Shown: positions 9,003-56,575, numbered from the stretch's first letter. The stretch: 64,000 nt of DNA from Patescibacteria group bacterium (GCA_038063895.1 JBBTUG010000006.1:6701-70700); one strand, 5' to 3'. Program-made: numbers and translations. The notes: a model not told the origin generated them from the letters alone.

Positions 9003-9004
9003 CG

Positions 9005-10849
9005 ATGATTTTAACGGAAACAAAAAAGGGAAACAAAGTAAACAAAAGGAAACTGAAAATGGTATCGGTTATCATAGGTCTCTTGGCCGTTTTCGGCTAT
9101 TTTTTCGCTCTCAGTCCGGTTTTGGCAACGTTACATACCGCAAAACTGCTAACAGCCGATTTCAAATACTTTAAGGACGGAATTATTCTGCAAAATCTTC
9201 CCCAAATGAAAAATGCCATCACCGCCGCCGAAAAAGATGCGAAATCTCTAAAAAATAACTCCCAGCTGCTGGTGTGGCTAAATGTCGTTCCGGTGCTTAA
9301 CGGTTACTACAGTGACCTGGTCAACGGGTCGGAGGCACTTCTGCACGGGGTCCGCGCAGTGGGGTTGGTTCTGGATGCGGCTACGCCTGAGGCCGCCAGT
9401 TTGGGTTTTTCCCCTTCGGGGGCTAAGATTCCGATTTCCGGCCAGGATAGAATTTCCGGCTTGGTTAAAATCGCCCCCCTGCTTAGCGGTCAGTATGAAG
9501 AAATCGCGGCGGAGCTTACGCAAATTCAGAATAGTTTTAACCGGATTGACCCGAATAGATACCCGGAAACCTATTCCGGAAAGCCCCTTCGGGGAATTCT
9601 TACAAGCGTTAGGGATGCTTTGGAAACCGTTGGCGGAAACTCTACCGATCTGAAGGCTTTTCTTGACGCTGTCCCCGAAGTCCTCGGCGCCACCGAGGCT
9701 AAGACTTACTTGGTTCTTTTCCAGAATGATAAGGAGTTGCGTCCGACCGGCGGCTTTTGGACAGCTTACGCGCTCCTTCGGATGGAAAAAGGAAAGATTG
9801 TCAGTATTCAGGCCGGTGATATTTATTTTTTGGATATCGACAACCGTGTGGCTTTTTACCCGACCCCGCCGGCGGTTATCCAAAAATACTTAAAGCTTGA
9901 TAAGTGGTATATCCGAGATACAAATATGTCCCCCGATTTCCGGAAATCGATTGAGCTGTTTAACGAGTTTTGGGCCCGGGTTCCGGGGGTTCCGAAAACG
10001 GACGGCATTTTCGCTATTGATACCGCCTTTGTTCAGGGACTGTTAACGGTTTTAGGAGATATTAAAATACCGAATTACGAAACGTTTACCAGCGAGAATG
10101 TGGTTTATCAGTTGGAGCTGGTGGCAAACGTTTTGGGCAGTCGGGAGGAGAAACGCGGAGGCCGCAAGGATATCATCGGGGTTTTGATGCGGGAGATGAT
10201 GTCGAAAGCTTTCGCCCTCCCGTCCAATCAATACGATAAGATTATCGGGAAAGTAATGGATATGGCCGTGAAGAAACACCTGCTTTTGTATTTTAATAAT
10301 CCTGAAGCCCAGGCGCTGGCGGAGAAATATAATCTGGCCGGGCGGATTAATGATTTCGACGGCGATTATCTTCACGTGAACGATGCGAATTTAGGCGGAC
10401 GGAAAGCGAATATGTATATGAAGGAAGATATAAGCAAAGAGATAAAAATGTTGGGCGGCGGCAAAGAGGTTTTAAGCACGGTGACCGTTGATTATGAAAA
10501 TACCGGCAGTTACAACGCCGATTGGAATACCGGCTATCGGGATTACGTCCGGGTTTATGTTCCGAAAGGCTCCGAGCTGATTTCCGGTTCGGGTTCTTTG
10601 GAAACGATTACCAGCGGCGAAGACTTAGGCCGAACCTACTTCGATGCCTATATGGCCGTCAATCCGTTACAAAAAGCAAAGCTGACTTTAACTTACCGGT
10701 TGCCTTCGGGTCTGATAAAGAACGGACAGCCGTACCAATTGCTTATCCAGAAGCAGCCCGGAACCGACGGGCAGAACTACACGGTTTCTGTTGGAAACAA
10801 GAAAGAAAGTTTTGTTTTAGAGACCGACCGGATTGTGGAAATTAAATAG
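9005..10849 (+). CDS. DUF4012 domain membrane-anchored protein
   Basis: One N-terminal TM helix plus 'FQNDKELRPTGGFWTAYALL', the characteristic DUF4012 E(L)RPTGGF motif. The gene typically neighbours a priming sugar transferase, as it does here. Confidence 0.55.
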   Translation: MILTETKKGNKVNKRKLKMVSVIIGLLAVFGYFFALSPVLATLHTAKLLTADFKYFKDGIILQNLPQMKNAITAAEKDAKSLKNNSQLLVWLNVVPVLNGYYSDLVNGSEALLHGVRAVGLVLDAATPEAASLGFSPSGAKIPISGQDRISGLVKIAPLLSGQYEEIAAELTQIQNSFNRIDPNRYPETYSGKPLRGILTSVRDALETVGGNSTDLKAFLDAVPEVLGATEAKTYLVLFQNDKELRPTGGFWTAYALLRMEKGKIVSIQAGDIYFLDIDNRVAFYPTPPAVIQKYLKLDKWYIRDTNMSPDFRKSIELFNEFWARVPGVPKTDGIFAIDTAFVQGLLTVLGDIKIPNYETFTSENVVYQLELVANVLGSREEKRGGRKDIIGVLMREMMSKAFALPSNQYDKIIGKVMDMAVKKHLLLYFNNPEAQALAEKYNLAGRINDFDGDYLHVNDANLGGRKANMYMKEDISKEIKMLGGGKEVLSTVTVDYENTGSYNADWNTGYRDYVRVYVPKGSELISGSGSLETITSGEDLGRTYFDAYMAVNPLQKAKLTLTYRLPSGLIKNGQPYQLLIQKQPGTDGQNYTVSVGNKKESFVLETDRIVEIK

Positions 10850-23871: not shown

Positions 23872-25283
23872 TGACCCTCCAGGAACTGAAGGATAAAAAA
23901 ATTGCGATTCTCGGATGCTCGATTGAGGGCCTATCCTCAGCTAGGTTTCTTTTAACTCACGGAATCAGTTTTACGGTTTTGGATAAACAGTGTTTGTCTG
24001 AATTAGGAGAAGAAGCCTTACAGTTATCTGGTAACCAATTAATTAATTGGGAACTTGGCGAAAATCATTTAGACCGCCTCGAAGATTTTGAGGTTATCTT
24101 CCGCACTCCCGGTTTTCCTTTGTGGAATCAACGTTTGCAGGCGGCCCTTGCCGCCGGGGCCGAGGTTACTTCCCAGACTAAATTATTCTTTAGTCTCTGT
24201 CCGTGTCCGGTGATCGGAGTTACCGGAACTAAAGGGAAAGGAACAACAGCCACCCTCATTTCTCTGATGCTTAAAAAATCCGGCCGAGATGTTTACCTGG
24301 GCGGGAATATCGGGACTCCTCCGCTTGATTTTCTAGATAAGTTAAATCCCAGTTCCTTTGCGGTTTTAGAATTAAGTTCGTTTCAGCTCGAGGATCTTAA
24401 GGTCAGTCCAAAAATCGCCGTAGTTTTATTGATCACGGCGGATCACCTAGTCTCGCAGTCTTCGGAAAGTCCCAACTATCACAAGACGGTAAAGGAGTAT
24501 GTCACGGCCAAAAAGAAACTGGTTCAGTTTCAAACAATTTCGGATACGGCGGTTATTAGCGCAGATTGGGAAACCAGTTTAGCGATGGAAAAGGAAACAG
24601 CGGCGGAGGCGTATTTTTTCAGCCGACAGCGCGAGGTTAAGCGGGGAACCTTCGTCCAGGATAAAACGATTATTTTTGTTGAACAAGGCAGGAAGGAAGA
24701 TATTATCTCTGTTTCGGAGTTGCTTCTGCGCGGAGAGCACAACTGGGAGAACGTTTGCGCGGCCGTGACCGTCGCAAAATTGTGCAAGGTGGAAAATACG
24801 GCAATTAGCTCGGTGCTTCGGACTTTTAGAGGTTTAGCGAACCGCCTGGAGTTTGTTGCTAGTGCGGGTGGAGTTAATTATTACAATGACTCTTTTTCCA
24901 CGACTCCGGAAACGGCCGTTGCCGCCCTGCGCGCATTTTCTGAGCCGCTGATTATTATTCTCGGCGGATCGGAAAAAGGGTCTGATTATACAGAGCTTGG
25001 CCGGGAACTTCACGAGGCGAAAAACTTAAAAGCCGTTATTCTGATCGGAAATACGGCCGGTAAAATTGAGTCAGCGGTGGTCCGCGCGGGAGGTTTCCCT
25101 CCGAAAATTGAAGTTATAAAAAATCTGCCGGATATGCCGTCAATTGTTTCCGCGGCAGCGAAAATTTCAGCACCCGGAGATGTTGTTCTTCTCTCGCCCG
25201 CCTGCGCCTCTTTCGATATGTTTAAAAATTATAAGGAACGCGGAAATCAATTTACACTGGGGGCTAAAAAAATATGCGCCTAG
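23871..25283 (+). CDS. murD: UDP-N-acetylmuramoylalanine--D-glutamate ligase
   Basis: 'IAILGCSIEGLSSARFL' and a 'GVTGTKGKGTTATLI' P-loop. Confidence 0.85.
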   Translation: MTLQELKDKKIAILGCSIEGLSSARFLLTHGISFTVLDKQCLSELGEEALQLSGNQLINWELGENHLDRLEDFEVIFRTPGFPLWNQRLQAALAAGAEVTSQTKLFFSLCPCPVIGVTGTKGKGTTATLISLMLKKSGRDVYLGGNIGTPPLDFLDKLNPSSFAVLELSSFQLEDLKVSPKIAVVLLITADHLVSQSSESPNYHKTVKEYVTAKKKLVQFQTISDTAVISADWETSLAMEKETAAEAYFFSRQREVKRGTFVQDKTIIFVEQGRKEDIISVSELLLRGEHNWENVCAAVTVAKLCKVENTAISSVLRTFRGLANRLEFVASAGGVNYYNDSFSTTPETAVAALRAFSEPLIIILGGSEKGSDYTELGRELHEAKNLKAVILIGNTAGKIESAVVRAGGFPPKIEVIKNLPDMPSIVSAAAKISAPGDVVLLSPACASFDMFKNYKERGNQFTLGAKKICA

Positions 25284-26827
25284 ATAAACTTCTTGCCGAC
25301 TTCGGAATTACCGAAACAGATGGCGGACCGGAAATTATCGGGATTACTGACGACTCCCGAAAAGTAAAACCAGGATATTTGTTCGTAGCAGTAAAAGGGT
25401 TGGAGCATGATGGGCACAAATACATCGAACAGGCAATTATGGCGGGAGCGTGTGCGGTTGTGTTCGATGTAAAGTCAAAAGTTTCCGCCCAAGGCGGATC
25501 CGCCGAGGGAGGAAAAAGTCAAAAGTCAAAATTTTCAGGCACTATTTTCGTGGGTGTGAGAGGTTCAAGAAAGGCCCTAGGGCTTCTTTGGGCGGCGTGG
25601 TACGGGTATCCGGCCAAATCGTTAAGAGTCATCGGTGTGACCGGGACGGACGGAAAAACAACGACAGCTAACCTTATCTACCACCTGTTGAAATCGGCCG
25701 GAAAAAAAGTTGGCCTAATCTCGACGATCAACGCTCAAATCGGGAACGATAGTTTTGAGACCGGTTTCCACGTGACCAACCCGGAGCCGGAGTTGCTCCA
25801 AAAGTTTTTAAGATTAATGGTTGATCGGGGCACGGAGTTTGCGGTTTTGGAAGTAACCTCGCACGGAATTGATCAGGAACGGATTGCCGGAATCGGTTTT
25901 GAGATTGCCGTGGTTACGAACGTGGCGCGGGAGCATCTCGATTACCACAAAACGTATGAAAATTATCTAAATACAAAAGGGCGTCTACTCGCTTCCGACA
26001 AGGTAAGTATTCTCAATCGGGACGACAGCTCCTTCTCTTATTTAAAGAGTGTTTCCGGAGGCGAGGTGCTCAGCTACGGCATTCACCAAAAAGCTGATTT
26101 TCAAGCCACCAAGGTTACGCTACTTGGGGAATCCGCCGTATTTACCTTGGAGCCCGGTTCCGTTGAAGTAAAAATTAATCTGCCCGGAGAATACAATATC
26201 GCTAACGCTCTTGCGGCGGCGGCCGCGGCCTTCACTGTTGGGCTGAGTGGGAAGCAAGTCGCTGCAGGGCTTCAAAGTTTCCAGACGCTTCCGGGGAGGT
26301 TTGAGGAGATAAAGACCGGACGGGATTTCCGGGTCGTGGTGGATTTCGCGCATACGCCCAACGCGCTTGAGAGTGTCCTGTCTATTAGCCGTAAAATCCT
26401 GATCATACCCACACCCTTAGGGTCAAGGCTTCCCGACCCTAAGGACGAGAAACCGCAAGAGCCAAAATTAATTGTAGTTTTCGGGTGCGCGGGGGAACGG
26501 GACAGTGGGAAGCGGCCGCTGATGGGTGAGATTGCAGGCCGGTTGGCGGATATCTCGATCCTGACCGCGGAGGATCCCCGGCGCGAGGATGTTAACGGAA
26601 TTATTGAGCAAATTGCTGCGGGATGCCAAAAATCGGGTGAGCATATATTTATTAAAGAACCTGACCGGCGGAAGGCGATCGAATTGGCAATAAATATGGC
26701 CAAGGCCGGCGACTTAATTATTATCACCGGCAAGGGGCACGAGAAATCAATGTGCTTCGGGACAACAGAGTATCCGTGGAGTGATCAGGAAGTAGCAAAG
26801 GGTATTTTAGAAAGGAATAACAAATAA
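25274..26827 (+). CDS. murE: UDP-N-acetylmuramoyl-L-alanyl-D-glutamate--2,6-diaminopimelate (or L-Lys) ligase; carries in-frame repeat insertions
   Basis: 'VIGVTGTDGKTTTANLI' P-loop and 'VTNVAREHLDYH'. An 'EDPRRED' motif retains the Arg typical of DAP-type enzymes. Confidence 0.85.
   Translation: MRLDKLLADFGITETDGGPEIIGITDDSRKVKPGYLFVAVKGLEHDGHKYIEQAIMAGACAVVFDVKSKVSAQGGSAEGGKSQKSKFSGTIFVGVRGSRKALGLLWAAWYGYPAKSLRVIGVTGTDGKTTTANLIYHLLKSAGKKVGLISTINAQIGNDSFETGFHVTNPEPELLQKFLRLMVDRGTEFAVLEVTSHGIDQERIAGIGFEIAVVTNVAREHLDYHKTYENYLNTKGRLLASDKVSILNRDDSSFSYLKSVSGGEVLSYGIHQKADFQATKVTLLGESAVFTLEPGSVEVKINLPGEYNIANALAAAAAAFTVGLSGKQVAAGLQSFQTLPGRFEEIKTGRDFRVVVDFAHTPNALESVLSISRKILIIPTPLGSRLPDPKDEKPQEPKLIVVFGCAGERDSGKRPLMGEIAGRLADISILTAEDPRREDVNGIIEQIAAGCQKSGEHIFIKEPDRRKAIELAINMAKAGDLIIITGKGHEKSMCFGTTEYPWSDQEVAKGILERNNK
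26412..26447 (+). repeat. 36-bp palindromic element, copy A (in-frame inside murE)
   Basis: Arms 'ccttagggtc'/'gaccctaagg' with loop 'aaggcttccc'. It encodes PTPLGSRLPDPK. Confidence 0.8.
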
Positions 26828-29680: not shown

Positions 29681-30835
29681 ATGAAAGAAATGGAAAACGA
29701 AAAGAAAAACATCGGAGTAATATTTGGCGGAATGAGCGCCGAATGCGAGGTATCTTTAGCAACGGGGAGATACGTTTACTCGCTGCTAAATAATAAAAAA
29801 TTTACCGGAACGCCATTTTATTTGGATAAAAAAGGCACTCTTTGGCAGGTTCCAGACAAACTGGTAATCCAAAATACGACGACGGATATCGAGCAGCGCC
29901 TGGAGAAGGACGCGAGCCGGGTAAATTTCGAGGACCTTCCCGGGAAAGTCAGCTGTGTTTTTAATGCGCTGTTGGGCAAGTACGGCGAGGATGGCTGTTT
30001 TCAGGCGATCTTGGAATTGTTGAAAATTCCTTACACCGGTTCAGGAATTCTCGCTTCCGCGTTGGGGATGGATAAAAAAGTCCACAAGAAAATGCTCTCC
30101 GGGGCGGGGTTTTTAGTGGCCAAAGATCTATTAATTCGTAATTCGGAATTCGATATTCGGAAAGTTACGGAAAAAGTTTCCAGGGAAATCGGTTTCCCCT
30201 GCGTTGTGAAGCCGACCCGGGAAGGTTCAAGTATGGGAGTGTCGGTGGTTAAAGAAGAAAAGGGTTTGGAAACAGCGTTCGAGTACGCCTTTAAGTATGA
30301 TCAGGAGGTTCTTGTCGAAGAGTATCTGAAAGGGATGGAGTTTACCTGCGTGGTTTGGGGCAACGACGATCCGAAAGCTATGCTCCCTACCGAAGTCGTG
30401 TTCGAGGGCGATTTTTTTACGTATGAAGGTAAATACATGCCGGGAAAAACCCAGACGATTACGCCCGCCCGGCTTTCGGAAGAGGGCTTGGCCGAGATAC
30501 AGCGCCAATCCGTGGCGATTTATCAGCTGATTGGTTGCCAGGGCTATGGCCGGGTTGACGGCTTTGTCGTTCCTAAGACCCTAAAGGTCGGGGAGCCCAG
30601 ACCTTTAGGGTCTTTGAGTTTGTCTGATATCTCAATTTACATCGCTGAGCCGCACACGGGAACAATTATGGTTCCTTCGTCTTTCGTTTTTCAACAGGCG
30701 GCGAAGTTCCGGATTGATCTGTCCACAGAATTCCATGGAAAAAAAGGTTCGATTCCGATGACCCCGCGCATTTTGGTAACAAAAATTATTGAGTTAGCCT
30801 TCGAAGCGTTTAGCAATAAGAAAGGATTATTATGA
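29681..30835 (+). CDS. ddl: D-alanine--D-alanine ligase (paralog 1; Lys-Tyr retained at the K215/Y216-equivalent position)
   Basis: ATP-grasp motifs 'FPCVVKPTREGSSMGVS' and 'FFTYEGKYMPG' (K at 30431-33, Y at 30434-36). The C-terminus is extended by a repeat insertion. Confidence 0.8.
   Translation: MKEMENEKKNIGVIFGGMSAECEVSLATGRYVYSLLNNKKFTGTPFYLDKKGTLWQVPDKLVIQNTTTDIEQRLEKDASRVNFEDLPGKVSCVFNALLGKYGEDGCFQAILELLKIPYTGSGILASALGMDKKVHKKMLSGAGFLVAKDLLIRNSEFDIRKVTEKVSREIGFPCVVKPTREGSSMGVSVVKEEKGLETAFEYAFKYDQEVLVEEYLKGMEFTCVVWGNDDPKAMLPTEVVFEGDFFTYEGKYMPGKTQTITPARLSEEGLAEIQRQSVAIYQLIGCQGYGRVDGFVVPKTLKVGEPRPLGSLSLSDISIYIAEPHTGTIMVPSSFVFQQAAKFRIDLSTEFHGKKGSIPMTPRILVTKIIELAFEAFSNKKGLL
30577..30612 (+). 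repeat. 36-bp palindromic element, copy B (in-frame inside ddl paralog 1)
   Basis: Perfect 13-bp arms 'gaccctaaaggtc'/'gacctttagggtc' with loop 'ggggagccca'. It encodes KTLKVGEPRPLG. Confidence 0.85.
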
Positions 30836-33913: not shown

Positions 33914-35383
33914 TTATCTATAAATATCAGGGAGGTCGTTTTCGAAGAGGATCAGAGAGTTGGGTTTGACTAATTGCGGGATTATCTCTTTGGTTGCCTG
34001 ATCGAGGGAGTCAGTGATGAATAATCTCTGACCTATTGTTCCGTTGTTCCATTGTTTCATTGCTGTGGCGTTGCTCCAGCCGCCTTCTCTAATTCCTTGC
34101 AGAAGGGCTGCACGGTTGGTTTTGTTGACGATCACGGCGTAATCAAAATTTTCGGCAATCAGTTCTCCTAACTTTTTATTCTCTTCGAACTGCTGTTTTC
34201 CCAATTCCACTATTCCCGGAGTCACTATTATTTTTGGGTAGTTGGGTAAACGGGTAATCAGTTTTATTGCGGCCCGGGCGCCCTCCGGGTTGCTGCTGTA
34301 GGCGTCATCAATTATTAACGAGTTTTCGGGGCCGTGGATTAGTTGTAAGCGGTGTTCCGGTGGGCTGACCTTGAATAGGCCGTGCCTTATTTCCTCTTCA
34401 GTTAAGCCTAAATATGTTCCTACAGCAATAGCCGCCAGGGCATTGCTGACGTTGTGGTCTGCCGGGAGGTTGAGGGTGTAAGTGTCTTGTTTTACCCTGA
34501 ACTCGGAGGATTCGGGAGAGGATGAAATAATTTCCGCCTGAAGATCGGCTTCAACTCCGTGCGGTTTGCTAATCCGGGAGTAACCTACTTTATTTATTAT
34601 AGTTTTTAGATAGAGTTCTACGCATGGTTGGGAGTACAGATTGAAAACCGCCAAGCCCTCCTCCGGAAGGGATTGAATCAATTCCGATTTAGCTTCCACG
34701 ATATTTTCCAAACTCCCGAACCGCTCCAGGTGCTGATTAGTTATTCCGGTGATAATCCCGATTTTAGGTCGAACCATCCGGCAGAGTTCCGCAATCTCGC
34801 CTTTTTTGTAGGCGCCCATTTCGACGATAAAGACTTCGTGCTCCGGCTTTAATTTCATATTGATGATACCGGCTATGCCGAAAAGCGTATTGTAGCTTTT
34901 TGGAGTCGCCAAAACTTCGTACTTCGTTGCGAGAACAGTTGCTAGGATTTCCTTCACCGTGGTTTTGCCGTAACTGCCGGTAATTCCGATGACCAATAGG
35001 TTTTTGTGTTCCGTGATAATTTTTTGGGCACGGAGAACCGTCCGGCGGCGGTTGATGATTTCGTATGGCCGGAGAACTAGTAAAGATATTAGAAGTAACG
35101 GCTGGGGGAACAGCTGAAGAAGAATAACGATAATTACACCCTTAAGGTCAAGGCTCCCCGACCTTAAGGGTGTGGCCCAGGGCTGAAATAGAAATATGGG
35201 AGCTAGGCTGAGGGCAGTGGCGCATATGAAAAGAAACCTGGCCTTCGAAGTCCACACCAGCGCCTTTTTCTTTTCCAGTCCTAAACGGAACAAATTTTGA
35301 ACGGTCCATTTAATGAAGCGGACTAGGTCGTATTCCAAAACCTGCAGGGCGTAAAGCTGGTTGTAAAGCGGGATGTACCTCAT
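33914..35383 (-). CDS. murF: UDP-N-acetylmuramoyl-tripeptide--D-alanyl-D-alanine ligase, with an N-terminal hydrophobic extension containing a repeat insert
   Basis: 'LLVIGITGSYGKTTVKEIL' P-loop and 'IGIITGITNQHLERFGS'. The start is set at Met 'MRYIPLYNQL' (35383) because the longer ORF overlaps the upstream hydrolase gene. The two genes overlap in an ATGA arrangement. Confidence 0.85.
   Translation of the reverse strand: MRYIPLYNQLYALQVLEYDLVRFIKWTVQNLFRLGLEKKKALVWTSKARFLFICATALSLAPIFLFQPWATPLRSGSLDLKGVIIVILLQLFPQPLLLISLLVLRPYEIINRRRTVLRAQKIITEHKNLLVIGITGSYGKTTVKEILATVLATKYEVLATPKSYNTLFGIAGIINMKLKPEHEVFIVEMGAYKKGEIAELCRMVRPKIGIITGITNQHLERFGSLENIVEAKSELIQSLPEEGLAVFNLYSQPCVELYLKTIINKVGYSRISKPHGVEADLQAEIISSSPESSEFRVKQDTYTLNLPADHNVSNALAAIAVGTYLGLTEEEIRHGLFKVSPPEHRLQLIHGPENSLIIDDAYSSNPEGARAAIKLITRLPNYPKIIVTPGIVELGKQQFEENKKLGELIAENFDYAVIVNKTNRAALLQGIREGGWSNATAMKQWNNGTIGQRLFITDSLDQATKEIIPQLVKPNSLILFENDLPDIYR
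35137..35172 (+). repeat. 36-bp palindromic element, copy C (in-frame inside the murF N-terminal region)
   Basis: Perfect arms 'cacccttaaggtc'/'gaccttaagggtg' with loop 'aaggctcccc'. It encodes PLRSGSLDLKGV in murF. Confidence 0.85.
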
Positions 35384-36105
35384 AAAATAAATTCCGAGAT
35401 TAATTTTGCGACCAGAGCCGGTTGTTCTATAAACGGGAAATGGCCGCACTGCGGGATAATTTTTAAGACCGAGTTTTTTATTCCCCTTTTCATAATCGCC
35501 GCGTCGCGGATGGGAGTTTCGGGATCTTCCTCGCCCCAAATAAGTAACGTTGGAGCCGCAATATTGCTCAACTTAGTCCGAAGGTCCTCTTCCACAATTA
35601 TAGCCATTGTCGCCTTCATCGGACCGGCGGCGCGGTAATCTTCCGATTGGAAGGATTTTGCCAGAGGTTTTTTAATAAATTCGGGAGAATTCGAAAAAGC
35701 TTTCGACATTAGAAGTTTCGTTTGGGTGAGGATGTCGCGGCGGCGGATTCCCGCGCTGTCAATCAAAATCATTTTCTTTACTCCGTTATATTCCAGCGCG
35801 TAGGCGAGTGCAATTTTCCCGCCAACCGAGTGTCCCAATAAAATGGGTGATTCGATTTCCAGTTCCTTAAAAAATTGATTTAATAAGGCGGCGTAATCGC
35901 GGCTGGAAAAAGGGGTTGCCGGAACCGAGCTTTCTCCGAAACCGGGCAGGTCCAAAAAGATCATTTGGAAAGGGAGCGCCGCGAGGTAAGGTTTTAAACT
36001 TTCCCAAATCTGCAGATTAGCTCCCCACCCGTGCAAAAAAACAATTTGTTCTCCGCGCCCGTAAACCTCGAAGTTGATATTCAGTCCCTTGATTGAGATG
36101 TTCAT
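35380..36105 (-). CDS. Alpha/beta-hydrolase fold protein
   Basis: 'VFLHGWGANLQIWE' and the nucleophile elbow 'GHSVGG'. 241 aa. Confidence 0.7.
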   Translation of the reverse strand: MNISIKGLNINFEVYGRGEQIVFLHGWGANLQIWESLKPYLAALPFQMIFLDLPGFGESSVPATPFSSRDYAALLNQFFKELEIESPILLGHSVGGKIALAYALEYNGVKKMILIDSAGIRRRDILTQTKLLMSKAFSNSPEFIKKPLAKSFQSEDYRAAGPMKATMAIIVEEDLRTKLSNIAAPTLLIWGEEDPETPIRDAAIMKRGIKNSVLKIIPQCGHFPFIEQPALVAKLISEFIL

Positions 36106-36119
36106 GAGTCGTCGCCGCT

Positions 36120-36155
36120 CACCTTAAAGATCATGGCTCTTCGACCTTTAAGGTG
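36120..36155 (+). repeat. 36-bp palindromic element, copy D (intergenic, in the 5' UTR of the hydrolase-murF operon)
   Basis: Arms 'caccttaaagatc'/'gacctttaaggtg' with one mismatch, and loop 'atggctcttc'. Confidence 0.8.
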
Positions 36156-36314
36156 TACGTATCTATTCTACCGTTTCCGCCGCCCTTCTGTCACAACGGT
36201 ACGTTTAGGGGAAGAGGTATAAACACGTCGAGGAATCACGTGACGCAATAAGTTAAAAATAAACTCTACAAATTTAACCGCTGATCGGCTGAATATTTTG
36301 TAGAGTCGATGCTC

Positions 36315-45072: not shown

Positions 45073-47952
45073 ATGAGCAAAATTGAAGCCGTTCCCGATT
45101 TTCCCCTGAATGAAAGAGAAACTCTTGCGGGTTGGAAAAAAGACGGAGTGGAAAAGAAATATTTAGCCAGAAATGAGTCTTCCCCGAAGCGGTTCCGGTT
45201 TATCGATGGCCCAATTACGGCTAATAACCCGATGGGGGTTCACCACGCCTGGGGCCGGACCTACAAAGATTTTTTCCAGCGTTATAAAAATATGCAGGGC
45301 TTTGCCCAGAGGTTCCAGAACGGTTTTGACTGCCAAGGTCTTTGGCTCGAGGTTGAAGAGGAAAAGAGCCGGGGCTTTAATTCGAAGAAAGACATTGAAA
45401 ATTTCGGCTTGGCTAACTTCAGCCATGCCTGCCGGGCCCGGGTCGAGAAATATTCCGCCATTCAAACTGAACAATCGCAGCGGCTGGGGATGTTTATGGA
45501 TTGGGGAAATTCGTATTATACGATGTCCGAGACGAACAACCTTTATATCTGGCACTTTTTAAAAAAATGCAATGAAAAAGGCTGGTTGTATAAAGGCGTG
45601 AACTCGATGCCCTGGTGCGTCCGCTGCGGCACGGCGATTTCCGCTCACGAACTCTCCGACGAAGGTTATAAAATAGTGGAACACGAATCAGTTTACGTGA
45701 AGTTTCCGTTAGTTTCGGACGATTCCAAATCCACGGCAACAAGTCTTCTAATTTGGACAACGACGCCTTGGACGCTTCTCGCCAATGTGGCCGTGGCCGT
45801 GAATCCCGATTATTCCTACGTTAAAATCAGAACGGAAAGCCGGCCGGAAGAGTTATTAATCGTAGCCGAAAACCGTCTTTCCGTAATCCCGGACGGCTAC
45901 CAGGTGCTTGAAAAAATCGCGGGGAAAGACCTGGTTGGGAAGACTTACCGTGGGCCTTTTGATGAACTAGGGGCGCAAAAAGAAGTGCAGCACCGGGTAA
46001 TTGACTGGCCGGAAGTTTCGGAAACGGAGGGAACGGGACTGGTGCACATCGCTCCCGGCGCCGGCGAGGAGGACTTTATATTAGGGAAAAAATTTAAACT
46101 CCCGGTTTTGGCGCCGCTTGATGAGTTTGGGATTTACTTGCCCGGTTACGGCGAATTTACCGGTAAGGATGCCCGCCGGATTAATGCCGAAGTGTTTGCT
46201 TCTCTGGAAGCGAAAAAATTCCTTTTTAAAACCGAAAAAATAAAACACAGTTATCCGCATTGCTGGCGGTGTAAGGAGCCGTTGGTTTTCCGGGTGACGG
46301 AGGAGTGGTTTATTAAGGTTGACCCGATTCGTCCTCTGCTAAAGCAGCTAACTGAAAAGATTGACTGGCGGCCGGATTACGTCGGGAAAAGGATGCAGGA
46401 TTGGTTGTTGAATATGAACGACTGGCCGATCTCCCGCCGGCGATATTGGGGGCTGGCGCTGCCGTTTTATGAATGTCCGAATAATCACTTAACTGTCGTC
46501 GGTTCGAAAGAAGAACTAAGACAGTTGGCGGTGGAGCCGGAAAAGGTTGACCACTTGCCGGAACTGCACCGGCCGTGGATTGATGAGATAAAAATTAAAT
46601 GTCCGCAGTGCGGGACGACAGTGGCCCGGGTGAGTTACGTCGGTGACTGCTGGCTGGACGCGGGGATCGTTTCCTTTTCGACTTTAAAGTACCTCGAGGA
46701 TAAAAGTTATTGGGAGAAATGGTTTCCGGCGGAAATGGTGACGGAATACGTGGCCCAGGTGAAACTTTGGTTTTACTCCCTACTTTTTATGGCCGCGACT
46801 CTTGAAGAAAGAGCGCCTTTTGAGAAAGTTTTTACCGACGGGTATGTGGTGGATGAAAAAGGGGAAGTGATGCATAAATCGAAAGGGAATGCGATCTGGT
46901 TTGACGAGGCGGTGGAGAAGATGGGGGCGGATATTATGCGCTGGGTTTATATGCGCGCCGATAATGCTAAGGATATAAGGTTCGGTTACGGCATTGGTGA
47001 CGAGGCCCGCCGGCGTTTTTTCCTGATTTTATGGAATAGCCTGAAGTTCGTGCTGGATAACCGGGAGGTTGACGGAGTGCCGGTAGGGAAGTTATCGCAG
47101 GGGGTTGGAAAATCACTGCCGGTCCTCGACCGCTGGATTCTATCCCGCCTCAACAGCACGCTAAAGCTGGTGACAGAGGCGAATGATGATTATCACCCCC
47201 AGCCCGGGGCGTTGGCGATTGAAGGTCTGGTAAATGACTTATCCACCTGGTATATAAGGCGCAGCCGCAACCGGGTCGGACCGGCGGCGGAAAATCAGGA
47301 GGATAAAGAGTCTTTTTACCAAACCGCTAATTCCGTTTTTTCGGTTCTGGTCAGGATGCTCTCTCCGTATACGCCTTTCTGGGTCGAGCGGATTTATAAA
47401 TACTTGGGCGGGGAAAAGCTCTCGGTTCATCTTGAAGACTGGCCGGTTGTAGAGGAACTACGGATTGATGCTGAGCTTGAAAAGGAAATGGCGTTAGTCC
47501 GGCAGATTTGCGAGGCGGGTCACGCGGCGCGGAAAGCCGCTAAAATTAAAGTCCGACAGCCACTTGCTTCGCTCGATGTCAAAGTTTCCACCAAAGGTGG
47601 ATCCGCCTTGGGCGGACAAAATTCAAGATTAATAATTTCTGAAGATATAAAAAAACTTGTACTGGCGGAGCTTAACGTGAAACAGCTGAAGTTTACCGAA
47701 GAGGCGGGTCTGAAAGAGATGACGGTGGAATATGATTTGAATATCACTCCTGAACTGAAAGCTGAGGGCGAGGCGCGGGAGCTGATCCGTTCTATTCAGG
47801 AGCTGCGGAAAGAAAAAGGCTGCCGGCTGACGGACAAGATTGTGGTTTCGGCGTCGGCCTGGCCGGAGGCTTTTGAAGCCCTAATTAAGCGGGAAACTTT
47901 AACGGCAGAACTAAAACAGTCCTCCGATCCTCTTTCCATCACAGTTTTATAA
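45073..47952 (+). CDS. ileS: Isoleucine--tRNA ligase (type 2-like; atypical HIGH region 'GVHHAWG', KMSKS as 'MHKSKGN')
   Basis: 'KDFFQRYKNMQGF', 'FDCQGLWLEVE', 'DWPISRRRYWGLALPFYEC' and a zinc-binding 'CPQCG'. 959 aa. Confidence 0.75.
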   Translation: MSKIEAVPDFPLNERETLAGWKKDGVEKKYLARNESSPKRFRFIDGPITANNPMGVHHAWGRTYKDFFQRYKNMQGFAQRFQNGFDCQGLWLEVEEEKSRGFNSKKDIENFGLANFSHACRARVEKYSAIQTEQSQRLGMFMDWGNSYYTMSETNNLYIWHFLKKCNEKGWLYKGVNSMPWCVRCGTAISAHELSDEGYKIVEHESVYVKFPLVSDDSKSTATSLLIWTTTPWTLLANVAVAVNPDYSYVKIRTESRPEELLIVAENRLSVIPDGYQVLEKIAGKDLVGKTYRGPFDELGAQKEVQHRVIDWPEVSETEGTGLVHIAPGAGEEDFILGKKFKLPVLAPLDEFGIYLPGYGEFTGKDARRINAEVFASLEAKKFLFKTEKIKHSYPHCWRCKEPLVFRVTEEWFIKVDPIRPLLKQLTEKIDWRPDYVGKRMQDWLLNMNDWPISRRRYWGLALPFYECPNNHLTVVGSKEELRQLAVEPEKVDHLPELHRPWIDEIKIKCPQCGTTVARVSYVGDCWLDAGIVSFSTLKYLEDKSYWEKWFPAEMVTEYVAQVKLWFYSLLFMAATLEERAPFEKVFTDGYVVDEKGEVMHKSKGNAIWFDEAVEKMGADIMRWVYMRADNAKDIRFGYGIGDEARRRFFLILWNSLKFVLDNREVDGVPVGKLSQGVGKSLPVLDRWILSRLNSTLKLVTEANDDYHPQPGALAIEGLVNDLSTWYIRRSRNRVGPAAENQEDKESFYQTANSVFSVLVRMLSPYTPFWVERIYKYLGGEKLSVHLEDWPVVEELRIDAELEKEMALVRQICEAGHAARKAAKIKVRQPLASLDVKVSTKGGSALGGQNSRLIISEDIKKLVLAELNVKQLKFTEEAGLKEMTVEYDLNITPELKAEGEARELIRSIQELRKEKGCRLTDKIVVSASAWPEAFEALIKRETLTAELKQSSDPLSITVL

Positions 47953-51006: not shown

Positions 51007-51032
51007 TTTATCCTTAACATCCGATAAAAAAA

Positions 51033-51068
51033 CACCCTAAAGGTCGGTGGAGGTTGACCTTCAGGGTG
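51033..51068 (+). repeat. 36-bp palindromic element, copy E (intergenic, at the rpmA 3' end; terminator-like)
   Basis: Arms 'caccctaaaggtc'/'gaccttcagggtg' with one mismatch and loop 'ggtggaggtt'. It is followed by 'taaatgttttt'. Confidence 0.75.
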
Positions 51069-51080
51069 TAAATGTTTTTC

Positions 51081-52406
51081 TCAACGATCCTCTCTCGGGC
51101 AGTCATCGAACGCAGGGTTCGAGCATACCGTCATCCGCCTTCCCATCTTCATTGGTGCGTGGCAGAACGGACACTGTCCAAGTCCCGTATTAACTTTCGG
51201 CGTCTTAATTCGTTGGCTGCCGACCGGAACGTAAGGAACCCCAAGATTCCACATCCCCGGCTGTGCAACTGACTTCGGACACAGGTGGTTCGCGAAAGCA
51301 AAGTCGCAGCCAGGGCATTGCCACTCTGAGGGGCGGGCAGGAAAGCCTTCCCGTTGATATTTCTGGTAAGTCGCAATCGCCAATTTCAGGCTGACCAGCG
51401 TTTCTTTCCAGAGCCGTGAATCGAAGGGAATGGGTATCTTTTCGAGGCGCATCGGATTGAGGGTTAGTCGGTGGACCCACAACGAAACGTTCTCCGCTTT
51501 AATCCCAAGTCCGGAAAAAGCCTGCATTGCCCAGCTGGCATACAGCGCTAATTGGAGCTGACAGTCCTGATGGTCCAGCTCGGAGTGGATATCGATGCCG
51601 GTCACTTTGTGGTCGATGATCCGGACCGAATACTGGCCGTCGTGCTCAGTGAGAATAACGAGATCAACGGCTCCGTTTAATCCCCATTTTTCTCCCTCAG
51701 TCATCGTGAGGCCGGTACCGGAAAGCAGCCAGTTGAGGTCAATAACCGGGAGACGCATCTCCGCGTCCCACCAGACCAGCTTCGTACCGCTGCGGGCTAA
51801 GGCTTCTCCGTAGGCTTTGACAGACACCATCTGGTGATGATGCCAAAGGAAACGGATAACCTGCTCCAGGTAGTAACGCATCGTCGGAATTTCCCAATCG
51901 TTTTGGGTGCCTATTCTGTGCCGGAAAAACTTTTCATCCGTAAACTTTCCTAAGATGTTGCTCAACCCCCACCGCGTCCGAAAAAATCCGACTTCGCTTA
52001 GTGACTTTTGTTCGGACAGCTGACGGGCGAGGTGGTAAACGGTACCGAAAGCGTTGCCCGGAGAGCTGGGTTGGCATGGATGTTCTTTCCGCAGCTGGTA
52101 GGCAAGCGGACAACCAAATCCCAGCATCTGAACCGCGAGCGTCGGGGTCATCCGGTTTGCCGGCCGGTGTTTTAATATCACCTCGCTGGTCGGTATGCAG
52201 TTTTCGCAAAGCCGTGATTTCGGCGCTTTCTTCCGAGGCAAGCCCGGTAAACTTTTTCCGGGTAAATAAAGGCGGCCGGTTCGTAAAGAGAAATTCCCAC
52301 AGCGGGCGCAAACCGCCGGGTGGTTCCAATTCCGGGATCTGACTAAAGCCGGCTTACGCATCGCTAAATGCGGCTGCATAAGCACCAGTTGTGTCGCTAA
52401 AGTCAT
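51081..52406 (-). CDS. PD-(D/E)xK (RecB/Cas4-like) nuclease family protein with Fe-S-type cysteine cluster
   Basis: 'GAVDLVILTEHDGQYSVRIIDHKVTG' supplies nuclease motifs II and III. 'QLQLALYA' is the RecB-family QhxxY motif. The N-terminus has 'CARCG' and the C-terminus 'CPGCDFAFANHLC'. Confidence 0.5.
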   Translation of the reverse strand: MTLATQLVLMQPHLAMRKPALVRSRNWNHPAVCARCGNFSLRTGRLYLPGKSLPGLPRKKAPKSRLCENCIPTSEVILKHRPANRMTPTLAVQMLGFGCPLAYQLRKEHPCQPSSPGNAFGTVYHLARQLSEQKSLSEVGFFRTRWGLSNILGKFTDEKFFRHRIGTQNDWEIPTMRYYLEQVIRFLWHHHQMVSVKAYGEALARSGTKLVWWDAEMRLPVIDLNWLLSGTGLTMTEGEKWGLNGAVDLVILTEHDGQYSVRIIDHKVTGIDIHSELDHQDCQLQLALYASWAMQAFSGLGIKAENVSLWVHRLTLNPMRLEKIPIPFDSRLWKETLVSLKLAIATYQKYQREGFPARPSEWQCPGCDFAFANHLCPKSVAQPGMWNLGVPYVPVGSQRIKTPKVNTGLGQCPFCHAPMKMGRRMTVCSNPAFDDCPREDR

Positions 52407-53097: not shown

Positions 53098-53117
53098 CTT
53101 AAGAATAAATGGTGTCA

Positions 53118-53140
53118 ATGAAACAATGAAACGATGAAAC
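53118..53140 (+). repeat. Tandem 'ATGAAAC' octamer-spaced repeat (x3) forming overlapping mini-ORFs (MKQ, MKR, MKP...)
   Basis: 'atgaaacaatgaaacgatgaaacc'. Each TGA stop overlaps the next ATG (ATGA). Confidence 0.6.
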
Positions 53141-53224
53141 CATTCTCCCCTGTAGAATTATAATTCCCCTTCCGTATTAACTCAACCCGAAAATCGGCGG
53201 ATTTTGCTATAATTTTGAAGAATA

Positions 53225-54514
53225 ATGAACCTTCGCGTTAAAAAAGTGGCCGGGAATACGTTGTTCCAATTAGCTGGAAAGGCGGTTTCAATCACCTGTT
53301 CGCTGCTGGCGACGGCGTTAATTACCCGCCGGTTTGGTGAGAATGGCTACGGCCTGTTTGCCCTAATGACGACTTTCGCCGCCTATTTCTACCTGGTGGT
53401 GGATTTCGGCATTAATGCCATCGTGATCCGGGCGGTGACGGAAAATAAGGAAAAGATCGCCGATTACTTCCGCAACCTCTACACTTTCCGTTTTTTGTTC
53501 TCTTTAGTTATCTTTTTAGTTGTTCTTTGCCTTCTGCCCCGGATTAATTTTAAAACCTCCGAACTCAGTCTTGTCCGGTGGGGGATTGCGATCAGTTTAT
53601 TTACGGTTATTTCCCAATCCCTTTATATCTCCGCCAACGCGATCTTCCAAAAAATATCCCGCTACGATCTTTCCAACCTCGCCTTAACCGCCGGAAATAT
53701 TCTGGCCCTACTGCTGACCCTTCTCTTCCTTTTCCTAGGCAAAGATTTGCTGTGGATGGTAGGGGCGACGGTAGTGGGAGCCTTTTTGTCCGTGGCTTTT
53801 TCCTTTGCGCTGATCCGGCCTTTCGTGCACTCCCTTCGGCCGTCGTTCGAGACGAAAGTGTGGAAAGAAATATTACTGCCGTCCTTGCCGGTAGGACTGG
53901 GGCTAATCACGATGGTGATTATGGCCAAGACGGATATGTTTTTGCTCTCAACAATTACTTTGCCCTCAGCTTTGGGCTATACTAACGGCCAGGCTTTAGG
54001 CTTCTACGGTCTGGCCTACAAAGTTTTTGAGACCGCCCTGGTTTTCCCGACCTTCTTTATCAACGCCCTCTACCCGTTACTCTTGGAGGATCATTTTTCC
54101 GACCGGGAGAAACTTAAAAACACCGTGAAGAAATCGGCTCTGTTTCTCTTTCTCATCGGGCTGGTGGCAGCTATTGTAGGCATTATTTTCGCCCCCTTTG
54201 CTATTACGGTTCTGGGTGGGAGCCGTTTCTTACCCGCCGTCGCGCCGCTGCAAATTCTCCTGCTGTCGCTGCCGATCTTCTTTCCTTCGGCTCTGTTTGT
54301 CTGGCTGTTAGTTACGCTAGGGCGGGAAAAATATCTGCCCTTAATTTACGCGTTCGGATCCGTATTTAATATCGCCGGCAATCTGTATTTTATTCCCCGT
54401 TACGGTTTTCTCGCTTCCGCGTGGCTGACCGGAATTACGGAAGTAATTGTTACCGTTTTGACGGCCTATTTATCTTTAAAAATACTTTTTGCCAAGGAAG
54501 GTTCCCGTGCTTAA
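53225..54514 (+). CDS. wzx: Polysaccharide flippase (Wzx/MOP superfamily)
   Basis: 429 aa with about 12 TM segments. The N-terminus 'LRVKKVAGNTLFQLAGKAVSITCSLLATALITRRFGENGYGLFAL' is a polysaccharide_synt signature. An extended -10 'TGcTATAAT' at 53205-53213 suggests a leaderless transcript. Confidence 0.7.
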   Translation: MNLRVKKVAGNTLFQLAGKAVSITCSLLATALITRRFGENGYGLFALMTTFAAYFYLVVDFGINAIVIRAVTENKEKIADYFRNLYTFRFLFSLVIFLVVLCLLPRINFKTSELSLVRWGIAISLFTVISQSLYISANAIFQKISRYDLSNLALTAGNILALLLTLLFLFLGKDLLWMVGATVVGAFLSVAFSFALIRPFVHSLRPSFETKVWKEILLPSLPVGLGLITMVIMAKTDMFLLSTITLPSALGYTNGQALGFYGLAYKVFETALVFPTFFINALYPLLLEDHFSDREKLKNTVKKSALFLFLIGLVAAIVGIIFAPFAITVLGGSRFLPAVAPLQILLLSLPIFFPSALFVWLLVTLGREKYLPLIYAFGSVFNIAGNLYFIPRYGFLASAWLTGITEVIVTVLTAYLSLKILFAKEGSRA

Positions 54515-55427
54515 TCCCCTGATATCCATTGTTATTGCCTCAAGCCGAAAAGATAGGAATAAGCTTTCGGCGTGTTTGGATTCCATTTACAAGGGATCTT
54601 TTCCGGCTGCTTCTTTTGAAGTTATTGTTGTCGACAGCGGGGCGGGGGACGAGGCAAAAGATTATCTTTTGGAGACAGCGAAAAGTCGCCCCAACCTTGT
54701 GCCTGCCTTTCCCGGCTTTGGTAATATCGGTCCGGCGCGGGCGCGAAATATTGGGATTAAGCTGGCCAAGTCGTCCTTGGTGGCTTTCACAGATGATGAT
54801 ATTTCGGTTGATCCGCAATGGCTGGAAAAGATTACTAAGGCTTTTCTTGAGCATCCCGAAGTGGCCGCTGTTGGCGGAATGACTTTGCCCCCGGACTCCT
54901 TGAGGCGAAATCCGTTTGCCGAATACGAATCGTCTATCTACCAACGCTATCTGAAAAATGGTTGCGCGGGCAGTTACTTATCAACGACGCGGGACGAGCA
55001 CCCGGTATTTACCGGCAATATTGCTTATCGGAAGGAGGTTTTAGAAAAAGCCGGGGGTTTCAGCGAAAATTTTCCGCCTTTTGTCTATGGGGAAGATGGG
55101 GATTTAAAGGAACGGGTGCTAAAAATGGGCGGCCGGTTTTTGTACATCGACTCGGTAAATTACCACAATACGGAGTACAGTCTCGCCAGCTTTTGGCAAA
55201 AAGAGGAGAAACGGGGGGCGGGGATTTTGCGCTATCGGAAAGACCACTACGGGACGTCTAGGCTTACACCTTTAAGATCGGGGAGCCGTGACCTTAAAGG
55301 TGTTTTGCATATGGTTATGAACTTAATACACCTTAAAGGTGTAAAAAATATTATGGGTATGTTTATTCTGGGTTTGGCGGTTGTCGCCCGACAAGTGGGG
55401 AAAATTCGTTACTATGGAAAAGTCTAA
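54489..55427 (+). CDS. GT2 family glycosyltransferase (3' end altered by palindromic-element insertions)
   Basis: 'ISIVIASSRKDRNKLSACLDSI...FEVIVVDSGAGDE...AFTDDDISVDPQW'. The C-terminal roughly 50 aa are encoded by repeat copies F and G. Confidence 0.6.
   Translation: MPRKVPVLNPLISIVIASSRKDRNKLSACLDSIYKGSFPAASFEVIVVDSGAGDEAKDYLLETAKSRPNLVPAFPGFGNIGPARARNIGIKLAKSSLVAFTDDDISVDPQWLEKITKAFLEHPEVAAVGGMTLPPDSLRRNPFAEYESSIYQRYLKNGCAGSYLSTTRDEHPVFTGNIAYRKEVLEKAGGFSENFPPFVYGEDGDLKERVLKMGGRFLYIDSVNYHNTEYSLASFWQKEEKRGAGILRYRKDHYGTSRLTPLRSGSRDLKGVLHMVMNLIHLKGVKNIMGMFILGLAVVARQVGKIRYYGKV
55267..55342 (+). repeat. 36-bp palindromic element copy F (55267-55302) plus a solo arm G (55329-55341), in the 3' end of the GT2 ORF
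   Basis: Arms 'cacctttaagatc'/'gaccttaaaggtg' with loop 'ggggagccgt'. A solo 'caccttaaaggtg' follows. Together they encode TPLRSGSRDLKGV...HLKGV. Confidence 0.8.
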
Positions 55428-56538
55428 AATTCTTTTTACCGACCATACTCCTTTCGTCGGTGGGGCGCAGCTGGCGCTTCTCCGTCACCTCCGGCACCTG
55501 TCTCGGGATCGGTATACCCCTTTCGTTGCCTGTTCCGACGCGGTTCCTCTGTTTGTTGAAAAGTTACGGGCGGCTGAAACTGCAACCACGATTTTAGCCT
55601 TTCCCAAATTGAAGTTACTCGGTCTCCCGTCAGTAGCTAACCTCATTAAAATCACTTGGGAGCTTTGTATAATAATCCGGAAGGAAAAGATTGACGTTAT
55701 CGTAGCCAATACTGAGCGGGCGGCCTATCCGTCTCTTTTGGCGGCGAAACTAACTGGCCGGCCGTTTATTTTGTGGGTTCGGGATTTTGAGTACGGGCAG
55801 AAGATGTTTGCCTTCTTGGCATTTTTTAGTTCGGACGTGGTTTTCGTTTCCCGGGCCCTGAAAAATTATTATCACAGTGATAAGGGACACGTTGTTTATG
55901 TCGGCACCGAAGTACCGCAATCCACTACAACCGCTGATACAACCCATTACCCCCTGATTCACATCGGCTTCGCTGGTCGGCTGGTCGCCTGGAAAGGCGC
56001 GCAAGTCCTAATTGAGGCGGCCCGGTTGCTGAAAGAGGAGAACTTTCTTCCCGGTGGCTGGCAGATAGTTATTGCCGGCTCGGGGGAAAATCAGGCGGGG
56101 TCGAATGAGATGGAGCTTCACCAAATGGTGGAAAGAGGGGGTTTGCAGACTGTTATTAAATTTTCCGGTTTTAGAGAACAGATGACTGAGTTTTACGAAT
56201 CACTGGACATTTTTGTCCACCCGTCAATTAAGCCCGAACCATTCGCTACGGTAGTCGTGGAGGCGATGGCCTTGGGGCTTCCGGTTGTAGCGAGTAACGC
56301 CGGGGGAACGCCGGAAATAATAAAGGACGGGGAAAACGGCTTCCTCTTTCCGAGCGGAGACGCCCAATCTCTCACGGGACAGCTGAAAATATTATTATTG
56401 GATAAGGAGTTACGGAAAAGAATTGGGGAGAATGCGCGCGAAACTGTGCACTCGGAATTTACGGAAGAGAAGGTGACCGGGCAGATGGAAACTATATATG
56501 GAGAGGTTCTCCCCGCCGGGTGGCGGATCGAACGGTAA
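55414..56538 (+). CDS. Glycosyltransferase family 4
   Basis: 'HPSIKPEPFATVVVEAMALGLPVVASNAGGTPEIIKDGENGFLF' is the GT4 E-x7-E region. The start is set at MEKSKILF. Confidence 0.7.
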   Translation: MEKSKILFTDHTPFVGGAQLALLRHLRHLSRDRYTPFVACSDAVPLFVEKLRAAETATTILAFPKLKLLGLPSVANLIKITWELCIIIRKEKIDVIVANTERAAYPSLLAAKLTGRPFILWVRDFEYGQKMFAFLAFFSSDVVFVSRALKNYYHSDKGHVVYVGTEVPQSTTTADTTHYPLIHIGFAGRLVAWKGAQVLIEAARLLKEENFLPGGWQIVIAGSGENQAGSNEMELHQMVERGGLQTVIKFSGFREQMTEFYESLDIFVHPSIKPEPFATVVVEAMALGLPVVASNAGGTPEIIKDGENGFLFPSGDAQSLTGQLKILLLDKELRKRIGENARETVHSEFTEEKVTGQMETIYGEVLPAGWRIER

Positions 56539-56547
56539 TTAGTGGCT

Positions 56548-56575
56548 ATGAAACAATGAAACAATGAAACCATGA
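56548..56575 (+). repeat. Tandem 'ATGAAAC' repeat (x3) forming three overlapping mini-ORFs (MKQ*, MKQ*, MKP*) whose last TGA overlaps the ATG of the downstream gene
   Basis: 'atgaaacaatgaaacaatgaaaccATGAgaatt'. ATGs at 56548, 56556, 56564 and 56572, with a TGA overlapping each next ATG. Confidence 0.6.

Follow-up and report, generated by a model that had tools for sequence, protein, structure and literature searches.

The closest described counterparts of the repeats reported here are repetitive extragenic palindromes (REPs) and REPINs (inverted REP doublets that form hairpins) with their REP-associated tyrosine transposases (RAYTs), among them E. coli TnpA-REP, whose structure has been determined with a bound REP hairpin (Protein Data Bank, PDB, entry 4ER8; PMC3337134, PMC3116915); a RAYT gene is expected to be single-copy and vertically inherited (PMC3337134). 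Di Nocera et al. (2013, PMC3733652) described REPs, single or dimeric, that sit wholly within open reading frames (ORFs) of known proteins in Opitutus terrae, Rickettsia conorii and others; they are read in frame and add short peptides, which are proposed to occupy linkers or loops that are flexible. As summarized in PMC10969869, the Rickettsia palindromic element (RPE; Ogata et al. 2000) is palindromic selfish DNA found in frame in unrelated housekeeping genes and compatible with protein fold and function, and RPE-1, about 150 bp long, encodes a conserved peptide of some tens of residues. We analysed 64 kb of a Patescibacteria groundwater genome (the window, in which positions are counted unless a contig is named), where a gene for a family 2 glycosyltransferase (GT2) contains a 38-nt palindromic doublet, copy F, and a 15-nt palindromic singlet, copy G. 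With a probability of about 75%, F is a doublet and G a singlet of a REP-type family tied to a RAYT-type HUH/Y1 transposase, both thus being parts of a REP/REPIN-RAYT system.

Copies F and G

54507..55427, + strand: GT2 glycosyltransferase gene (GTG start; Pfam Glycos_transf_2, 68.8 bits)
55266..55303, + strand: copy F, putative 38-nt REP doublet (REPIN-like hairpin; covariance model 61.2 bits)
55304..55327, + strand: spacer between F and G, a hypervariable linker stretch together with the loop and right arm of F
55328..55342, no strand: copy G, putative REP singlet ACACCTTAAAGGTGT, a 15-nt perfect palindrome (7+1+7), read HLKGV

Copy F consists of a left arm (55266-55279, ACACCTTTAAGATC), a loop (55280-55289, GGGGAGCCGT) and a right arm (55290-55303, GACCTTAAAGGTGT), the arms being 14 nt each and complementary at 13 of 14 positions; over its 38 nt it is 89% complementary to another copy of the family, C (35136-35173). 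Of the 14 positions in F's right arm, 13 are matched by copy G. Just one of the three sense frames of F is free of stops, namely the frame in use, in which it is translated as TPLRSGSRDLKGV, 13 residues that occupy positions 260-272 in the numbering of the 312-codon mechanical ORF 54489..55427 (TTG start at 54489). That ORF contains both repeats, as the initial annotation of this locus had claimed, and both are translated within the GT2 reading frame, F as 13 residues and G as 5. The repeats also exceed shuffled expectation: the arm core CACCTTTAAG, allowing one mismatch, occurs 17 times in the window (4.3 expected) and the unit ACACCYWWWRGGTGT, allowing two, occurs 8 times (0.72 expected), counts reached by none of 100 shuffles in either case. 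The F/G region folds with -27.6 kcal/mol (z = -3.2 in the sense and -5.1 in the antisense direction).

Two other identities for these repeats were considered and rejected: an intrinsic terminator, since both lie inside coding sequence and have no T run, and a tandem duplication giving rise to the right arm of F and to G, which stand 39 nt apart with weak similarity beyond the 13-nt arm, F having in addition the loop specific to the family.

A dispersed family of palindromes

The window holds six doublets (A to F) and one singlet (G); four of the doublets lie in frame inside genes, those for MurE, Ddl, MurF and GT2. The doublets other than F are:

26411..26448, - strand: copy A, in the MurE gene (25274..26827), read TPLGSRLPDPKD; outer end of one arm decayed
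30576..30613, + strand: copy B, in the first Ddl gene (29681..30835), in another frame, read KTLKVGEPRPLGS
35136..35173, - strand: copy C, with a perfect 14-bp stem, in the MurF gene (33914..35383, minus strand), read TPLRSGSLDLKGV
36119..36156, - strand: copy D, intergenic, 13 nt upstream of the start of a hydrolase gene (35380..36105, minus strand)
51032..51069, + strand: copy E, intergenic, between the L27 gene (50755..51006) and a convergent ORF (51081..52406)

Copy E is the only one in the window to be flanked by an A run and a T-rich stretch; the convergent ORF beside it has no Pfam match.

When metagenome contigs were scanned with a pattern containing the loop, the element was located on five contigs of the same groundwater samples from Hainich, which correspond to three distinct loci, and a hairpin scan of these five contigs added one further variant. 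Of the four distinct copies outside the window, three are contained in ORFs, one aminotransferase-like (by eye) and two encoding membrane proteins, where they are read TPLGSRLPDPKGV, TPLRSGSLDLKGV and PPGRSGLPDLPGV. The ten distinct copies align free of gaps as ACACC-YWWAR-GGTC GGGGAGCCNT GACC-YWWWR-GGTGT, so that the singlet unit is ACACC-YWWWR-GGTGT and the doublet consists of two inverted units around the loop GGGGAGCCNT in a 14-bp hairpin, each arm of which fits the singlet pattern with two mismatches. Across the ten copies, 96.4% of the cells of the stem are paired and five of the 14 pairs undergo compensatory double changes, one copy having a core substituted with G and C (CCCGGAAGG/CCTTCCGGG); the pairing score is reached by none of 500 shuffles, and partners slid by one to three columns also fall short of it. 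Folding energies of the doublets correspond to z = -3.2 to -5.2. A covariance model built from the ten copies also matches singlets, namely G, its orthologs on contigs L001 and L002, and positions 8804-8826 of contig L021. The copies end in ACAC and GTGT, with flanks that are not conserved save for a frequent A after GTGT; no consistent direct repeat that could represent a target-site duplication flanks the ten copies, contrary to what is expected of a MITE (a miniature transposable element with inverted repeats). A motif at the protein level was rejected as the basis of the family, because the copies stand in either orientation, use two frames and are also present in non-coding DNA.

Among other collections, Rfam at gathering thresholds matched only a tRNA and no family corresponding to the repeats, viral contigs gave no match, and the pattern including the loop was not found in species-representative genomes, among which the source lineage is not included. 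The pattern without the loop gave 15 loci in these genomes (596 Gb), mostly in metagenome-assembled genomes (MAGs) of Anaerolineae, with the same stem core and other loops; some of these could be due to chance given the number of hairpins in 596 Gb.

A RAYT-type transposase gene adjoining the palindrome

On contig L021 the reverse complement of G, ACACCTTTAAGGTGT, lies 11 nt upstream of the ATG of ORF 8834..9532, which encodes a protein of 232 aa (P0232) with a Pfam Y1_Tnp match of 38 bits (cut-off 23); the palindrome 11 nt upstream of the RAYT start on contig L028 is likewise the reverse complement of G. The HUH histidines H90 and H92 and the catalytic tyrosine Y150 are invariant across 33 homologs of P0232. 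The best PDB fold match of its structure model (predicted local distance difference test score, pLDDT, 84.1) is the E. coli TnpA-REP structure 4ER8 (E = 5e-5; TM 0.69, target-normalised), and the next matches are the IS608 and ISDra2 transposases.

The association of gene and palindrome extends to other genomes. A singlet stands 11-12 nt upstream of the RAYT ATG on contigs L021, L028, L027 and L026 and about 33 nt upstream on the WWE3 contig L036. RAYT orthologs (43-84% identity) keep the palindrome in place as compensated variants (ACACCTTTAAGGTGT in L028, ACACCCTAAGGGTGT in L027 and AGACCCTTAGGGTCT in L026), and the gene is flanked on both sides by ACACCCTAAGGGTGT in L027 and by CGAACCCTWAGGGTTCG in L036 (50% identity). 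Besides its two flanking singlets, L027 has a REP singlet (462-476) within the RAYT coding sequence (250-954). The gene order LysM-RAYT-NrdG-NrdD-NrdR is conserved in three lineages (43-100% identity), which fits the expectation for a vertically inherited single-copy RAYT. The RAYT and the GT2 protein of the window occur together in assembly ERZ1292633, with coverage of 11 and 12, and both are also present in SRR32696680; the tetranucleotide correlation between the RAYT contig and the window, 0.972, equals that between the two halves of the window.

Loci found with the loop-free pattern were used as leads only, and led to RAYT fragments on contigs L005, L014 and L009. In a Moraniibacteriota MAG (UBA12116), RAYT fragments adjoin palindromes with the same core: the contig ends at L005 5999-6353 and L014 27-209 break at palindromes of the form ACCCTTAGGGTC-N10-GACCCTAAGGGT, beside the two halves, C-terminal and N-terminal, of a RAYT homolog, with one flank shared and inverted. 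The gene may be interrupted by a doublet there, or the assembly may have broken at the repeat. Anaerolineae MAGs (L009-L013, L017) contain a multi-copy palindrome with the stem core ACCCTTAGGGTC/GACCCTAAGGGT and the loop CGCTTCGCGA, and in L009 a RAYT-like match lies about 3 kb from the palindrome. Many RAYT homologs are found on contigs of about 1 kb, which would fit breaks at flanking repeats, but most contigs in the collection searched are short anyway.

The host gene is intact

55343..55424, + strand: C-terminal helix of GT2, KNIMGMFILGLAVVARQVGKIRYYGKV, native rather than repeat-derived according to conserved residues and the structure model
55414..56538, + strand: GT4 glycosyltransferase gene (Pfam Glycos_transf_1, 142.9 bits)

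The initial annotation proposed that a repeat insertion had replaced or extended the native C-terminus of GT2 and had pushed the gene into the next one, the last 50 or so codons being built from repeats. In fact the GT2 gene is intact and has undergone neither a replacement nor an extension of its C-terminus. Its start is placed at GTG 54507 by the gene call for a database protein that is 100% identical (P0001, 306 aa) and by those on orthologous contigs. More than 100 homologs were found, the best 40 of which cover 75-98% of the protein (most of them 92-98%) and are mostly 296-322 aa long; 28 homologs (35-77% identity, 296-318 aa), most of them without repeats, align through its end. In the resulting alignment of 29 sequences, all or nearly all share R301, G304 and K305 of the motif RQxGKxxYY. 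The assignment of the host as GT2 rests on the Glycos_transf_2 domain together with full-length homology through K305. Since repeat-free homologs down to 35% identity share the C-terminal helix and the length, the C-terminus is native, and the alignment brought out exactly what was to count against a replacement, the same tail in proteins without repeats. It is true that Pfam GT2 domain matches stop by residue 251 at the latest and that the repeats fall within the last 53 codons; only 13 and 5 of these codons, however, derive from F and G, and the final 27 are native.

An AlphaFold model from the 29-sequence alignment (mean pLDDT 89.6) is confident except in the linker, where residues 258-268 have pLDDT below 50 and are non-helical. 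The residues encoded by F, 260-272, fall in this low-confidence loop, and those encoded by G, 281-285, are placed at the turn between a helix (265-284) and the conserved last helix (288-308), which is predicted with pLDDT of about 90 or more. The predicted peptide sequence of the decorated GT2 includes LTPLRSGSRDLK.

The overlap with the next gene does exist, the ATG of GT4 at 55414 preceding the end of the GT2 stop codon (55425-55427) so that 14 nt are shared, but it lies 70 nt past the end of G. It is identical in the orthologs on L001 and L002, in a stretch of conserved DNA, and is therefore ancestral and unconnected with the repeats.

History of the GT2 locus

The window, L001 and L002 are about equidistant (nucleotide identity 0.76-0.77, third-position identity 0.59-0.61). 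Across positions 55280-55327, 7 of 48 nucleotides are conserved in the three orthologs, compared with 43% of third codon positions in the gene, whereas all 15 positions of G are conserved in both L001 and L002; no stretch of the GT2 gene is fully conserved over a greater length than the 18 nt that contain G (55327-55344), and the gene's longest series of conserved third positions also includes G. In L001 the left arm of F is preserved and forms 13 bp with G, the spacer between them measuring 48 nt; in L002 this arm has decayed. Comparison of the three sequences places G and F's left arm in their common ancestor. Over the 24 nt of the loop and right arm of F, the window is 0.21-0.29 identical to L001 and L002, the random level, whereas L001 and L002 are 0.58 identical to each other, near the neutral baseline. 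A 24-nt patch so unlike both same-length orthologs indicates that one lineage had part of its linker overwritten at constant length; of the proposed rewriting by insertion, this patch in the linker and the in-frame translation of the repeats are what stands.

Copies inside genes and their orthologous sites

When all copies were translated in all frames, the variants inside genes proved open only in the frame that is used, which gives TPL...KGV in either orientation; a stop in that frame is present in the three intergenic copies and in B, which uses another frame. The loop of B, CCCAGA where the consensus has CCTTGA, differs exactly where the consensus would create TGA in the frame of B. Four of the intragenic copies are sense and three antisense, so that some mRNAs contain the conserved loop as GGGGAGCC and others as GGCTCCCC.

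Against solved structures, A lies in an insertion of 16-19 residues in the linker before the C-terminal domain of MurE, B comes just after the RVDGF motif of Ddl, where the alignment ends, and C lies in an N-terminal hydrophobic extension of MurF. MurE of the syntenic relatives L018 and L019 is without A, the window protein being 15-16 residues longer there, and the Ddl site is hypervariable, close orthologs having 0-45 extra residues there and distant ones none. At B and C, L018 has stretches of equal or almost equal length whose nucleotide identity to the window is 0.62-0.64 (0.64 at C), above the third-position baseline of 0.48 (0.485 for C), which implies that these insertions predate the split between the two. 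The stretch at C in L018 is one codon shorter and shares GGTCGGGGAG. The stems of B and C are perfect in the window and broken in L018, the remnants in L018 are not detected by the covariance model, and a hairpin scan of L018, L019 and a third syntenic relative, L020, found no intact family member.

Other repeats occur at or near the same sites. The Ddl loop of relatives (L019 10001-11200; P0114, P0117, P0126, P0127, P0120, P0130) contains other short palindromes or peptide inserts, for example CCGACTCCGGGAGTCGG, read PTPGVG, and inserts of the RSDSGQ type are found at three different Ddl positions in different genomes; this variety suggests that there are several such repeat families in the clade. 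L019 (5547-7199) has the palindrome ATCCGCCAGTCGGCGGAT at the MurE linker position occupied by A in the window. A second intragenic palindrome family is represented in MurE of the window by a 30-nt in-frame insertion (25484-25515, TCCGCCCAAGGCGGATCCGCCGAGGGAGGA, read SAQGGSAEGG), which is absent from the orthologs in L018 and L019, and by an inverted copy in the IleS gene 45073..47952 (47585-47616, read STKGGSALGG), the two sharing the core GGATCCGCCTTGGGCGGA. The octamer AATGAAAC is present as three direct copies in two spacers of the polysaccharide cluster (53106-53143, upstream of the flippase gene that starts at 53225, and 56536-56573, between the GT4 stop and the Wzy-like start at 56572), with a weaker inverted copy at 34035-34063; it may serve as a common regulatory site or represent a third family of repeats. 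The window also encodes a small stand-alone GIY-YIG domain protein (57824-58105, minus strand) and a PaaX-like protein (32959-33840).

Mechanism and alternative explanations

By analogy with E. coli TnpA-REP and the IS200/IS605 elements, the transposase would bind and cleave the hairpin in single-stranded DNA and would spread or maintain copies without target duplication, and selection would retain only those intragenic copies that are open in frame and located in tolerant loops. In the GT2 gene, G and the left arm would be ancestral, and the 24-nt patch of loop and right arm would have been overwritten later in one lineage. The presence or absence of the repeat at the MurE site and the lack of target-site duplication are the only indirect signs of mobilisation. 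Several observations weigh against a REP/REPIN-RAYT system. REP_Tyr_transpos, the sole NCBIfam match of P0232, scores 46.2 bits, below the cut-off of 80, and PDB sequence searches with P0232 and with a 33-sequence profile retrieved no RAYT, E. coli TnpA-REP included; only the comparison of folds was successful. A tblastn search found no RAYT gene in the window, and that the RAYT contig belongs to the same genome is inferred from co-occurrence, coverage and composition; L018 too has a correlation of 0.967, composition thus not separating close relatives. The REPs bear neither the GTAG nor the CGTC tag of the described superfamilies (PMC3733652). Nor does F behave as a simple insertion: the three GT2 orthologs have no indel in the F/G region, the linker of the window clade (53 residues from RGAGIL to RQxGK in the window GT2 and its two closest orthologs, compared with 49-50 in other homologs) is only 3-4 residues longer than in repeat-free homologs, and no empty site for F itself was found.

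If the hairpins were instead cis-acting host elements concerned with mRNA stability, termination, pausing or the binding of a regulator, with the GT2 position selected and the spread secondary, the compensated changes in the stem, the conservation of G and the persistence of the B and C sites since before the divergence of L018, with stems perfect in the window though broken there, would be explained; so would the position of E between convergent genes, which with its A run and T-rich stretch resembles a bidirectional terminator, and the AAGGTG motif, similar to a Shine-Dalgarno sequence, within the singlet upstream of RAYT. We nevertheless regard this as rather improbable, given that the hairpins stand in both orientations to transcription with their loop read in two forms, that their host genes and spacers are unrelated, that Rfam has no match, that F is not conserved between orthologs and that the family is linked to a transposase gene. 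Single copies such as G or E may have a host function, which as a general explanation fits poorly with two orientations and unrelated hosts. Alternatively, the palindromes might be mobile or recombinogenic independently of RAYT, as MITE-like remnants or products of template switching, and the one next to the RAYT gene just another copy. The window without a RAYT gene and the indirect assignment of the RAYT contig, the missing GTAG tag, the same-length replacement at F, which resembles conversion more than transposition, and the unrelated short palindromes at the same permissive sites in relatives all agree with this idea, which is decidedly improbable all the same: the palindrome keeps its place at the RAYT start among orthologs of 43-100% identity, in compensated variants and at both ends of the gene in two of them; RAYT fragments adjoin palindromes of the same core in the Moraniibacteriota genome; there are no terminal inverted repeats with target-site duplication; and template switching that is purely local is ruled out by the asymmetric loop common to the copies. 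Replacement or extension of the GT2 C-terminus, to which the limit of the Pfam matches and the position of the repeats had pointed, is close to untenable against a conserved length, an overlap with GT4 common to both orthologs and a tail that is confidently predicted to be a helix.

Within a REP/REPIN-RAYT system, a further possibility is that the intragenic copies are not passive scars but are actively kept up or copied anew in place, by the RAYT or by conversion between copies. This is unlikely, but if true, loops of essential proteins would be repeatedly overwritten at constant length while arms such as G were kept as anchors or binding sites, amounting to transposase-driven turnover of protein loops in a minimal genome.

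Significance

For annotation of GT2, the repeats represent the addition of a short loop and not a truncation or fusion. More generally, the window probably shows a REP/RAYT-type system in an ultra-small Patescibacteria genome, with most of the visible copies inside essential cell-wall and envelope genes, presumably because the spacers are so short. Such a system would lend itself naturally to asking what amount of small selfish DNA proteins can tolerate and whether REP hairpins are kept up at the DNA level in the long term. It also offers a practical explanation for hypervariable loop insertions in protein alignments of this group and possibly for contig breaks at RAYT genes.

Comparison with known systems

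Like the REP/REPIN-RAYT systems of E. coli (TnpA-REP, 4ER8) and Pseudomonas fluorescens (PMC3337134, PMC3116915), the family consists of short imperfect palindromes that occur as singlets and as inverted doublets forming hairpins, with compensated stems, no target-site duplication and a transposase gene flanked by its cognate palindrome; the transposase gene here may likewise be single-copy and vertically inherited. The doublet is 38 nt long, compared with about 89 nt for the GI REPIN of P. fluorescens, and unlike those of known REPs and REPINs its arms are each nearly self-complementary and have no GTAG tag. The RAYT, at 232 aa, goes undetected against 4ER8 by sequence, and its clade is distant from the E. 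coli protein. Whereas REPs are extragenic by name, a predominantly extragenic location was not found here, with four of the six window doublets and G inside genes. The Patescibacteria host differs from the known hosts of such systems, and a full-text literature search turned up no publication that connects RAYT or REPIN with Patescibacteria.

The ends of IS200/IS605 elements such as IS608 and ISDra2 are also single-stranded hairpins recognised by a Y1 HUH transposase without target duplication, but are subterminal in an autonomous element that carries the transposase, whereas the hairpins described here are dispersed alone. In-frame insertion is shared with the Rickettsia RPE, for which the account in PMC10969869 describes no RAYT link; the 38-nt element is far shorter than the RPE-1 length given there and for that reason is not classed with the RPE, and no sequence similarity to what is given there is apparent by eye. 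The intragenic REPs of Di Nocera et al. carry GTAG or CGTC tags and are often hosted by genes of DNA synthesis and repair (PMC3733652), whereas the hosts here are cell-wall (MurE, Ddl, MurF), glycosyltransferase and membrane-protein genes. Intragenic REPs being already known, this family is set apart by a tagless, very short and near-self-complementary doublet, a distant RAYT clade, a Patescibacteria host and a high share of copies inside genes.

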